Shown in pieces: positions 27,947 to 28,954 of a stretch of DNA of 64,000 nt. Where the stretch lies: contig JBBIHX010000002.1 of the NCBI GenBank assembly GCA_037446815.1, forward strand, positions 7,641-71,640, given 5' to 3'. Position 1 is the first letter of the stretch. Each line of letters starts with the position of its first letter. The notes beneath the pieces were generated by a model. The model was not told the DNA's origin, searched no databases, and saw nothing but the letters and a program-made list of their open reading frames with translations. The position numbers and the translations under genes are program-made. This DNA is from Caldilineae bacterium (lineage in GTDB: Bacteria; Chloroflexota; Anaerolineae; DTLA01).

Positions 27947-28954
27947 ATGGCAAGATACGCAACCATCGTTGGAACCGGCAGGTATCTGCCGCCCATTGAG
28001 CGCACCAACGAGGAGTTCAAGCAGGACATGATTGCCGTGAACCCCGCCCTGGGCGAGGTTGTGGACAAATTTGAAGCGTCCACCGGCATCAAGACCCGAT
28101 GGTACGCCCCCGACGACTGGGCAACTTCGGACCTGGCCGCCGAGGCGGCGAAGGACGCGCTCGCCGACGCCGGCATCAAGGCCGAGGACCTGGACTGGAT
28201 TCTGCTGGGCACCGACTCGCCCGACTACATCACGCCGGCAACCTCGGTCGTCGTCCAGCACAAGATCGGCGCGGTGAACGCGGGCACGGTGGACCTGGGA
28301 TGCGCCTGCGCCTCGTTCCCCACGGGCCTGGCGCTGGGCGCGGGCCTTATCGCCACGAACCCGTACATCAAGTACATCTTGGTCATCGGCGCGTACATGA
28401 TGCACAAACTGTCCGACTGGAAGCACGATGTCGTCTCGTTCTTCTACGGCGACGGCGCGGGCGCGGCGGTGCTCGCCGTCAGCGACAAGCCCGGCTTCGT
28501 CTGCTCCACGGCCTTCGCCGATGGGTCATATCACAAGCACTGGGGCATCTACTCGGGCGGAACCTACGAGCCGGCATCGGTGGAGTCGGTACAAGCAGGT
28601 CGCACGAAAGTTCGGCTCATCACCCCCTTCCCGCCGGACGTGAACAACGTGGGCTGGCCCAAGCGCATGCGCGAACTGGCAGCCCACGGCAACTTTGCCC
28701 TGCAAGACGTGGACATGGCCATCTTCACGCAGGTGCGCCTGAACTCTATCCAGCTGGTCATGCAGGACCTCGGGCTGCCCATTGAGCGAGCGCACTGGAT
28801 CATGGACAAGTGGGGCTACACCGGCTCGGCGTGCCTGCCTATGTGCTTTGACGACGCCCGAAAACTGGGCAAAGTCAAGAGCGGCGACCTGGTAACGTTC
28901 GTCGGCTCTGGGGTCGGGTACAACCAAGCCGGCGCCGCGTTCATCATGCCCTAA
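27947..28954 (+). CDS. KAS III (FabH)-like thiolase-fold protein, atypical (Cys present; canonical His/Asn positions substituted)
   Basis: FabH-like GCACASF around the active Cys. The region aligning to FabH VPHQAN reads IFTQVR. The region aligning to HGNTSAAS reads WGYTGSAC. RBS aggagga. Confidence 0.75.
   Translation: MARYATIVGTGRYLPPIERTNEEFKQDMIAVNPALGEVVDKFEASTGIKTRWYAPDDWATSDLAAEAAKDALADAGIKAEDLDWILLGTDSPDYITPATSVVVQHKIGAVNAGTVDLGCACASFPTGLALGAGLIATNPYIKYILVIGAYMMHKLSDWKHDVVSFFYGDGAGAAVLAVSDKPGFVCSTAFADGSYHKHWGIYSGGTYEPASVESVQAGRTKVRLITPFPPDVNNVGWPKRMRELAAHGNFALQDVDMAIFTQVRLNSIQLVMQDLGLPIERAHWIMDKWGYTGSACLPMCFDDARKLGKVKSGDLVTFVGSGVGYNQAGAAFIMP

Follow-up and report, generated by a model that had tools for sequence, protein, structure and literature searches.

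Ketoacyl-ACP synthase III-like proteins with a predicted Asp-Cys-Thr-Tyr site, encoded in a candidate catabolic operon of a Caldilineae bacterium

The window (the whole stretch of 64,000 nucleotides analysed, positions 7,641 to 71,640 of contig JBBIHX010000002.1, assembly GCA_037446815.1, Caldilineae bacterium) carries on its plus strand a gene for a protein with the fold of ketoacyl-acyl carrier protein (ACP) synthase III (KAS III, FabH). Cys of the FabH triad is kept; His and Asn are replaced. Fold and superfamily are known. The apparent novelty is a KAS III-like clade of the thiolase superfamily with a putative Asp-Cys-Thr-Tyr site, tentatively read as cleaving 3-oxoacyl-coenzyme A (CoA). 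The gene and the codons discussed are listed below.

27947..28954, plus strand: KAS III-fold protein of the 'D-C-T-Y' clade, 335 amino acids (Pfam, alignments, AlphaFold2 model)
28214-16, plus strand: codon of Asp90
28232-34, plus strand: codon of Thr96
28307-09, plus strand: codon of Cys121
28643-45, plus strand: codon of Asn233
28727-29, plus strand: codon of Thr261
28817-19, plus strand: codon of Tyr291
28832-34, plus strand: codon of Cys296
28907-09, plus strand: codon of Ser321

The open reading frame (ORF) 27947-28954 is preceded by a ribosome-binding site, AGGAGG, 7–8 nt 5' of its ATG. The product is above the Pfam cut-offs for ACP_syn_III (PF08545, 56 bits) and ACP_syn_III_C (PF08541, 70 bits). 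It is below the cut-off of all NCBIfam FabH models (best NF006829, 178.6 against 249; TIGR00747, 156 against 292.1), far below those of the 3-hydroxy-3-methylglutaryl-CoA (HMG-CoA) synthase models (NF003274, 55.5 against 244; TIGR01835, 23 against 360) and below that of Pfam Thiolase_N (20.1 against 26.4). No match to Thiolase_C is observed in the Pfam scan.

Solved FabHs are the nearest structures. The AlphaFold2 model of the query has a mean predicted local distance difference test score of 86 and, by Foldseek, template-modelling scores of 0.83–0.86 to solved FabHs at 22–30% identity; no solved structure closer than these was found with the model. The motif differences described below are therefore not a mis-alignment of another fold. 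In the HMMER search of Protein Data Bank (PDB) sequences, FabHs are matched at E ~1e-40, HMG-CoA synthase at 1e-8 and PqsC at 3e-7, and OleA and CorB are aligned over the N-terminal half alone (E ~1e-15 to 1e-18). PhlA of PhlABC was considered as a close relative and set aside, no PhlA chain being among the 60 PDB sequence matches listed.

HMMER alignments to solved FabHs and MAFFT alignments give the same residue correspondence. Cys121 of the query, in GCACASF, is Cys112 of E. coli FabH; Thr261 is His244 (IFTQVR on VPHQAN or IPHQAN); Tyr291 is Asn274 (WGYTGSAC on HGNTSAAS). An earlier note, made from the letters alone, had described a FabH-like protein with Cys kept and His and Asn substituted, and had given the same two motif replacements; the alignments bear out both, and the model, which that note had named as a check, has the KAS III fold. 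Common to the query and FabH are Gln245, the GDGAGA motif, the Gly-rich C-terminal loop and Cys at the same helix N-terminus. The stretch ~199–237 is rebuilt relative to FabH.

The substitutions are shared by a wide clade. The 120 closest homologue clusters (74–98% identity) belong to Anaerolineae/Chloroflexota metagenome-assembled genomes (MAGs), a few labelled Kiritimatiellia. The Cys motif is found in 118 of them, GYTGSAC in 110 and FTQVR in 87, the last count missing 32 homologues because of its strict regular expression. Residues C121, T261 and Y291 are invariant in the MAFFT alignment of the query and 28 close homologues. In an exhaustive HMMER search of 1.8 billion cluster representatives, full-length relatives down to ~33% identity all have Cys, Thr and Tyr (C/T/Y); past these the matches turn abruptly to canonical FabHs with Cys, His and Asn (C/H/N). 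A scan of one genome per species gives loci L001–L032 with C/T/Y and L033–L085 with C/H/N.

The clade is spread over at least ten bacterial phyla. C/T/Y loci occur in Chloroflexota, Acidobacteriota, Myxococcota, KSB1, Caldiserica, Elusimicrobia, Bdellovibrionota, Gemmatimonadota, Bacteroidota (including the isolates Phaeodactylibacter luteus and Rapidithrix thailandica) and Gammaproteobacteria (the isolate Aquisalimonas lutea, Competibacteraceae). With the signature columns masked, the clade is monophyletic in 48 of 50 neighbour-joining bootstraps. Judged by sequence, the substitutions are neither chance nor sequencing error and the C/T/Y proteins form a sister clade of FabH in which no characterised member was found. 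Among NCBIfam and Pfam models and solved structures, none specific to the clade was found either. The clade is not described in the literature searched on KAS III-like enzymes without His/Asn, in catabolism, or with thiolase/DUF35.

Some members depart from the common form. Two Caldiserica MAGs carry two tandem C/T/Y paralogues each (L026 8957-10984, L028 995-3004; 38–40% identity to the query), possibly forming a heterodimer. A divergent relative, P0191, is an outlier in the tree and has FFTHGG and FGYTANSC, with Ile for Asp in the column of query residue 90 (FabH 81); it may represent yet another form of the rebuilt site. In a Chloroflexota MAG a second, very divergent thiolase-fold ORF (L009 5445-6512; 27% identity, triad columns C/I/H) precedes the C/T/Y gene by 3.5 kb.

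Clade-specific positions are those conserved in at least 85% of 18 clade representatives and rare or absent in 70 canonical FabHs:

Asp90: Thr81 in E. coli FabH (Asp there in 0 of the 70 canonical FabHs)
Pro229: Val212 in E. coli FabH
Asn233: Ala216 in E. coli FabH
Trp237: Leu220 in E. coli FabH
Thr261: His244 in E. coli FabH
Tyr291: Asn274 in E. coli FabH
Gly293: Ser276 in E. coli FabH
Cys296: Ser279 in E. coli FabH
Ser321: Phe304 in E. coli FabH

The clade signature (Asp90, Cys121, Thr261-Gln262, Gly-Tyr291-Thr-Gly, Ser321-Gly) is complete in the query. Cys121, Asp90, Thr261, Gln262, Tyr291 and the GxG loop are unchanged from 98% down to 33% identity, as expected of an active site maintained by selection. 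The site thus appears rebuilt with a conserved set of its own and not merely stripped. As far as alignment tells, the malonyl-decarboxylation machinery of FabH (His244, Asn274, Ser276, Phe304) is lost and an acidic position of HMG-CoA synthase type is gained. The earlier note had offered a Cys-only or a non-canonical site: the site is non-canonical, and it is not Cys-only, given conserved Asp90, Thr261, Tyr291, Gly293, Ser321 and, in most members, Cys296.

Asp90 aligns with a catalytic acidic residue, the general base of HMG-CoA synthase. In hhalign (probability 96.5%, 19% identity), T89-D90-S91 of the query is paired with T78-E79-S80 of S. aureus HMG-CoA synthase (sequence checked against PDB 1xpk), and G-YTGS with the HMG-CoA synthase motif GNIYTGS. 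The acidic residue of the T-[DE]-S motif stands 31–32 residues ahead of Cys in the clade and in HMG-CoA synthase alike. In HMG-CoA synthase this base is Glu79; Thr132 of chalcone synthase is in the same column as Asp90 and lines the active-site cavity. From these two column equivalents Asp90 is inferred to face Cys121, and its alignment on Glu79 points to acid/base carbanion chemistry rather than to bare acyl transfer.

The cofactor-binding and carrier-docking residues of FabH are largely absent. In FabH, Trp32 and Arg151 stack the CoA adenine, and Arg36 and Arg249 dock ACP. W32 is kept in 3 of the 18 clade representatives (65 of 70 FabHs), R151 in 2 (62 of 70) and R249 in 2 (52 of 70); R36 is likewise not conserved. 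Position 87, which gates the acyl pocket of FabH and in M. tuberculosis FabH goes with a longer acyl channel, is Ser or Thr in all 18 representatives, and by analogy this would open a longer acyl channel. FabH His244 and Asn274 mutants reportedly self-acylate and fail to decarboxylate malonyl-ACP (Davies et al. 2000). Since such mutants behave in this way, the query would probably be able to form an acyl-Cys intermediate and yet be incapable of the FabH condensation.

An ordinary FabH whose His and Asn come from displaced positions is scarcely credible. It would agree with the fold, with the best database matches, with the public records, which name many clade members ketoacyl-ACP synthase III, and with Asn233, invariant at a new position (A216 of E. 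coli FabH). No invariant His is present anywhere in the family alignment, so the shifted His that the earlier note had allowed for is excluded. In addition, all FabH cut-offs are missed, the ACP-docking residues are lost, ACP, fabD or fabF context is absent, and the clade is separate from the FabHs, which adjoin FabG of the NADPH type. E. coli FabH (PDB 1hn9/1ebl) shares with the query the fold, both Pfam domains and the nucleophilic Cys, and differs in His244 to Thr, Asn274 to Tyr, Ser276 to Gly, Phe304 to Ser and Thr81 to Asp; FabH is linked to fabD/fabG/acpP, the query gene to a short-chain dehydrogenase/reductase (SDR) of the NAD type, acid activation and importers. The FabH label of the query is probably wrong.

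The genes around the KAS-like gene, including an importer of the ATP-binding cassette (ABC) type, are:

25683..26606, plus strand: lipoprotein-type alpha/beta hydrolase (Pfam Abhydrolase_1; N-terminal sequence …ILVAC SSS…)
26609..27079, plus strand: DUF5680 protein (Pfam DUF5680, 78 bits), beginning 3 nt past the stop codon of the esterase gene
27113..27889, plus strand: FabG-like classical SDR (Pfam adh_short_C2)
28963..30312, plus strand: family-I CoA-transferase, 4-hydroxybutyrate / butyryl-CoA:acetate type (Pfam AcetylCoA_hydro and AcetylCoA_hyd_C)
30351..30677, plus strand: small conserved protein, 108 amino acids (no Pfam match)
30691..31500, plus strand: cytoplasmic alpha/beta hydrolase with GISYG serine motif, esterase/PcaD type (Pfam Abhydrolase_1)
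31533..31970, plus strand: MaoC / PhaJ-like (R)-specific enoyl-CoA hydratase (Pfam MaoC_dehydratas)
32140..33504, plus strand: lipoprotein substrate-binding protein of a Liv-type ABC importer (Pfam Peripla_BP_6)
33594..37731, plus strand: rest of the ABC importer
33594-34394 and 34396-35124, plus strand: importer ATPases (Walker motifs in the translations)
35121-36596 and 36601-37731, plus strand: importer permeases (Pfam BPD_transp_2)

Gaps between the plus-strand genes from 25683 to 31970 are 2–57 nt. Operon limits are set by gene spacing alone; promoter and terminator counts over 24600-40200 are not above those of shuffled sequence. The neighbours listed in the earlier note (SDR, family-I CoA-transferase, MaoC hydratase, two alpha/beta hydrolases, small hypotheticals) are all present, with the second hydrolase at 25683-26606, outside the range 27113..31970 given there. 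Its statement that no ACP gene is present also holds: neither an ACP-like ORF nor a phosphopantetheine-site motif is found in the 64-kb window. Thiolase, DUF35 and a second KAS are likewise absent from the window, and no polyketide synthase (PKS), non-ribosomal peptide synthetase (NRPS), glycosyl or fabD/fabF context is observed at the locus.

The hydrolase 25683-26606 is possibly the first gene of the operon and probably an extracellular family V esterase. Its best solved relative is Ade1/Est1 (8v16/6eb3, 191 bits); Ade1, itself of esterase family V, acts on tributyrin and Tween-20 (10.1101/2020.12.16.421545). The DUF5680 gene was not found by the KAS gene in the other loci examined. The CoA-transferase is below the cut-off of TIGR03948 (278 bits), and its best solved relatives are 4-hydroxybutyrate CoA-transferases (365 bits). 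The cytoplasmic hydrolase 30691-31500 has a sub-threshold match to PcaD; its best solved relatives are the metagenomic esterases MGS-M2 and Est1/Ade1, then PcaD. The hydratase is closest to the solved PhaJ hydratases 5cpg and 1iq6, and this PhaJ-likeness indicates (R)-specificity. The mechanically called ORF of the binding protein opens at 31984, with the likely start, MKRLFG…, at 32140. The importer gene order, with ABC_tran, is repeated in L001 and L004.

L002, L004 and L006 encode homologues of the 108-amino-acid protein in the corresponding place. Proteins of 104–108 amino acids directly follow the CoA-transferase in Anaerolineae loci (window 30351-30677, L002 10451-10765, L004 12349-12663). 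From its GxW…GTW pattern, the window protein may be lipocalin-like.

The SDR partner carries the signature of NAD(H) use. The product of 27113-27889 scores 298.3 with TIGR01830, the FabG equivalog (cut-off 297.75). Its best solved relative is 4nbw (331 bits), a FabG homologue of Plesiocystis pacifica reportedly studied as NADH-dependent, followed by FabGs and the (3R)-hydroxyacyl-CoA dehydrogenase 2et6. It has TGSAMGIG, without Arg, and Asp37 in VAVCDV. Among clade-linked SDRs, Asp stands at the end of beta2 in 21 of 21, and 20 of the 21 have no Arg in the Gly-rich motif; FabGs beside canonical FabH mostly have TGASRGIG and GTATS or NY. By the SDR cofactor rule, Asp at the end of beta2 goes with NAD(H), whose use is typical of catabolic dehydrogenases. 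Because of this Asp and the missing Arg, the clade SDRs are predicted to use NAD(H). The window SDR is proposed to be an (R)-3-hydroxyacyl-CoA dehydrogenase.

Gene context was counted in 31 non-redundant C/T/Y loci. ORF calls in the high-GC loci are rough (greedy) and were used only with BLAST or Pfam confirmation. An SDR is present in 22 of the 31 loci, usually adjacent and sometimes translationally coupled, and is the only conserved oxidoreductase, in keeping with a substrate that already carries oxygen at C3. Alpha/beta hydrolases are found in 22 loci, MaoC in 5. Acid activation is provided by an AMP-binding ligase (18/31) or a CoA-transferase (8/31), never by both. Transporters are of several types: a Liv-type ABC importer (Anaerolineae), a major facilitator superfamily (MFS) protein (one Bacteroidetes MAG), sodium:solute symporters (SSF; KSB1 and Rapidithrix) and TonB-dependent receptor-like outer-membrane proteins (Acidobacteriota and Phaeodactylibacter). 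Regulators are of MalT/BTAD, MarR, TetR or ArsR types. The ligases belong to the fatty-acid-CoA ligase subfamily PRK06187 (3 of 7 reach the cut-off, the rest are just under it) and are below the benzoate-CoA ligase cut-off.

Importers, interchangeable makers of CoA thioesters and substrate-type regulators argue for an operon that is catabolic and CoA-dependent, not polyketide or lipid biosynthetic. The earlier note had suggested a specialised acyl-lipid or polyketide-like pathway in place of housekeeping fatty-acid synthesis; the departure from housekeeping synthesis stands, and the proposed pathway does not agree with the uptake, acid activation, NAD-type SDR, hydrolases and regulators of the 31 loci.

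Single loci add further observations. Methylcitrate-cycle-type genes (phosphoenolpyruvate mutase/isocitrate lyase-like, citrate synthase, PrpD) and an MFS gene precede the operon in L001 (3906-7459), in this one locus; the methylcitrate-type genes could hint at a propionyl-CoA product. In Aquisalimonas lutea (L016 3092-10996) the C/T/Y gene directly follows E1, E2 and E3 of a 2-oxo-acid dehydrogenase complex, without adjacent SDR or ligase, a context unlike that of all other loci. Homologous secreted proteins of ~520 amino acids (L020 14435-16009 and L023 7790-9340; 43% mutual identity, signal peptides, no Pfam match) are encoded alongside the operon in one MAG each of Bacteroidetes and KSB1 and may take part in uptake as an outer-membrane component. 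A lipoprotein of 173 amino acids (L023 7201-7722) has a homologue in L020; both may be ligand-binding, analogous to the 108-amino-acid protein.

Simple acyl transfer is unlikely. The acyl group of an acyl-CoA would be taken up by Cys121 and passed to an O-, N- or S-nucleophile (alcohol, amine, water, ACP), with Asp90 deprotonating the acceptor. Cys is indeed kept while the decarboxylation residues are gone, an acid-activating enzyme is nearby in the ligase and CoA-transferase loci counted above, FabH His244/Asn274 mutants reportedly retain transacylase activity, and DpsC and CerJ are examples of KAS III-like acyltransferases. These known enzymes keep His and Asp where Thr and Tyr are found here. 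PKS, NRPS, glycosyl or ACP context is missing, the ACP-docking Arg249 is not conserved, uptake transporters and an NAD-type SDR have no obvious role, and strictly conserved Thr, Tyr and Asp suggest enolate chemistry.

DpsC has Ser-His-Asp, CerJ Cys-His-Asp and PqsC Cys-His. DpsC, CerJ and PqsBC resemble the query in the KAS III fold and a non-canonical triad, theirs serving acyl transfer without decarboxylation; they belong to secondary-metabolite pathways, whereas the query combines Cys with Thr, Tyr and Asp and is encoded in an operon of catabolic type. The preference of the earlier note for an acyltransferase over FabH is thus right in setting FabH aside, by residues and by scores; the DpsC/CerJ type does not fit, with Thr/Tyr for His/Asp and no PKS.

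A biosynthetic module is very unlikely, although all four OleABCD protein types occur in many loci. An exogenous acid would be activated and extended by non-decarboxylative, OleA- or thiolase-like Claisen condensation, the product reduced by the SDR and released by the hydrolase, in an OleABCD-like pathway or in reverse beta-oxidation, for which an NADH-type SDR and a PhaJ-like dehydratase are also suited. An extra acidic base is used by the non-decarboxylative condensers OleA (Glu117) and PpyS (Glu105). Against synthesis, a CoA-transferase takes the place of the AMP ligase in anaerobes, so that the role of the ligase is CoA activation and not OleC-type beta-lactone formation. OleD is an extended SDR of the 3beta-hydroxysteroid dehydrogenase type, here replaced by a classical FabG-like one. 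OleA keeps His and Asn, importers, TonB-dependent receptors and extracellular esterase point to consumption, and the non-decarboxylative condensation is thermodynamically uphill.

OleA, PpyS and CorB/MxnB recruit an extra acidic residue as base. They share with the query the KAS III fold, CoA substrates and the absence of malonyl decarboxylation, and the gene partners of OleA, too, are an alpha/beta hydrolase, an AMP ligase and a reductase. They differ in keeping His and Asn and in being biosynthetic; their Glu is contributed by the partner subunit and is located near position 87 of FabH, whereas Asp of the query is at position 81.

Preference is given, tentatively and as a possible rather than a probable reading, to non-decarboxylative, thiolase-like cleavage of 3-oxoacyl-CoA by the KAS-like enzyme. 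The NAD-dependent (R)-3-hydroxyacyl-CoA dehydrogenase to which this cleavage would be coupled would act on 3-hydroxy acids that are imported and possibly esterified. The observed fold, residue pattern, clade monophyly, gene linkage and cofactor signature underlie this reading; reaction, direction and substrate are deduced from residues and neighbours. The alpha/beta hydrolases would free the imported carboxylic acid from its ester, and the CoA-transferase (the AMP ligase in other phyla) would turn it into a CoA thioester. The NAD-dependent FabG-like, hence (R)-specific, SDR would convert (R)-3-hydroxyacyl-CoA to 3-oxoacyl-CoA, and the PhaJ-like hydratase would join (R)-3-hydroxyacyl-CoA and enoyl-CoA. 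Cys121 would then attack the 3-oxoacyl-CoA at C3, the hydroxyls of Thr261 and Tyr291 stabilising the leaving acetyl-CoA enolate and Asp90 acting as proton donor/acceptor, and the shortened acyl group would be released from the enzyme by CoA. Substrates would be carried on CoA, not on ACP. The ancestral FabH-FabG pairing would be kept, shifted to CoA and NAD and run without decarboxylation. The most plausible substrates would be free or esterified (R)-3-hydroxyalkanoates, among them 3-hydroxy fatty acids and the monomers or oligomers of polyhydroxyalkanoates.

The thiolase-like model explains the SDR as the only conserved oxidoreductase, the absence of any other thiolase from 23 of the 31 loci, and dispensable decarboxylation residues together with a gained acid/base. 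The proposed reaction is that of thiolases, members of the same superfamily, proceeding through acyl-Cys after a 3-hydroxyacyl-CoA dehydrogenase. Thiolases (Cys-His-Cys) belong to another branch of the superfamily; the query has no equivalent of their His348 or Cys378, and its proposed acid/base is Asp90.

Several points weigh against this reading. A thiolase of the sterol carrier protein x (SCP-x) type is present in 8 of the 31 loci, including most Anaerolineae, and 6 of these also have DUF35; the KAS-fold thiolase would be partly redundant there, and the KAS-like protein could instead join thiolase and DUF35 in a complex. In L011, L020 and L027 Ser or Ala stands in place of Cys296, which is thus replaceable, not an obligatory second catalytic residue of the thiolase kind, and probably not essential. 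For the alpha/beta hydrolases no specific NCBIfam family scores above cut-off, and generic or sub-threshold matches of the ligases and hydrolases of other loci give no substrate clue past 'fatty-acid-CoA-ligase-like'. The binding protein 32140-33504 has as best solved relatives 3nnd and 3n0x of R. palustris, then binders of benzoate derivatives; the closest solved relatives with a known ligand bind aromatic acids, and relatives with unidentified or aromatic ligands do not discriminate between substrates. In HMG-CoA synthase the Glu deprotonates the Cys-bound acyl group and not a CoA-bound leaving group, so that the geometry may favour aldol-type chemistry. A candidate analogue of thiolase Cys378 had been seen in Cys296; it is weakened by the Ser or Ala of the three loci and is not located at the Cys378 loop.

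Aldol-type chemistry is nevertheless judged quite unlikely, if somewhat less so than a biosynthetic module. The enzyme would act like HMG-CoA synthase, with Asp90 enolising a Cys-bound acyl group that adds to a ketone, or as a retro-aldolase on 3-hydroxyacyl-CoA like Ltp2/Sal, with Tyr291 as base; the SDR would handle the carbonyl product. The alignment of Asp90 on Glu79 and the resemblance of GYTGS to GNIYTGS are in its favour, and DUF35 and thiolase genes adjoin the KAS gene in 6 to 8 loci. Family models of HMG-CoA synthase are far under cut-off (55 against 244), its His233 is absent, and similarity to FabH is much higher (E ~1e-40 against 1e-8). The known retro-aldolases lack a nucleophilic Cys, whereas Cys121 is invariant here, and the conserved partner is a FabG-like SDR and not an aldehyde dehydrogenase.

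HMG-CoA synthase (S. aureus MvaS, 1xpk; Glu79/Cys111/His233) belongs with the query to the initiation-type branch and shares the T-[DE]-S acid and the YTGS motif. It is non-decarboxylative and in archaea goes with thiolase and DUF35, as in several clade loci; it differs in Glu for Asp, in a His233 without equivalent in the query and in much weaker overall similarity. DUF35 scaffolds thiolase with HMG-CoA synthase in archaea, and PhlC with PhlA in PhlABC (PMC12329534). Thiolase-superfamily enzymes of catabolic operons, the Ltp2/Sal steroid side-chain aldolases, have sites rebuilt around Tyr/Tyr or Tyr/Cys for retro-aldol cleavage, often with DUF35 (PMC12329534). Ltp2/Sal differ from the query in their SCP-x thiolase fold, in the loss of the nucleophilic Cys and in cleaving CoA esters of steroids.

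A dead or structural subunit, either a partner of the thiolase/DUF35 pair or a PqsB-like member of a heterodimer, is highly improbable. The canonical triad is lost, the CoA-adenine-binding residues of FabH are not conserved, thiolase and DUF35 are adjacent in several loci, and tandem paralogues occur in Caldiserica (L026, L028), all of which such a subunit would accommodate. It does not agree with the invariance of Cys121, Asp90, Thr261, Gln262, Tyr291 and the GxG loop over 98–33% identity, with the 23 loci that have no thiolase partner, or with close homologues 74–86% identical across many genomes.

The thiolase-like reading has a wider form, which is less likely than the reading itself and rather doubtful as a whole. 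The FabH scaffold would have given rise to a new catalytic type within the thiolase superfamily, with Asp and Cys, an oxyanion hole of Thr and Tyr, and the ability to break or make C-C bonds without decarboxylation. With an NAD-type SDR it would constitute an unrecognised (R)-specific, CoA-dependent catabolism of imported 3-hydroxy or related acids, present in at least ten phyla and in all of them wrongly annotated as belonging to fatty-acid synthesis. In metabolic reconstructions of Anaerolineae, Acidobacteriota, Bacteroidota and other groups, a gene that is probably from a degradation operon is counted towards fatty-acid synthesis, and the annotation error affects many environmental genomes. 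Asp-Cys-Thr-Tyr would add a catalytic solution to a superfamily with Cys-His-Asn, Cys-His-His, Cys-His-Cys and Glu-Cys-His variants. Conservation of the operon (74–86% identity, many Anaerolineae MAGs), importers and extracellular esterase suggest a common environmental substrate.

On the downstream side of the operon in the window, the ABC permeases are followed by an ORF of 472 amino acids without Pfam match (37786-39204, plus strand) and a UbiA-family prenyltransferase (39207-40112, plus strand). Upstream lie an energy-coupling factor (ECF)-type transporter module (20103-23343, plus strand; fused ATPase, CbiQ-like T component, S component) and, at 23757-24689, a nucleotidyltransferase-like ORF (minus strand) and a small cupin-like ORF. 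The ECF module and the ORFs of 23757-24689 appear unrelated to the KAS-like gene.

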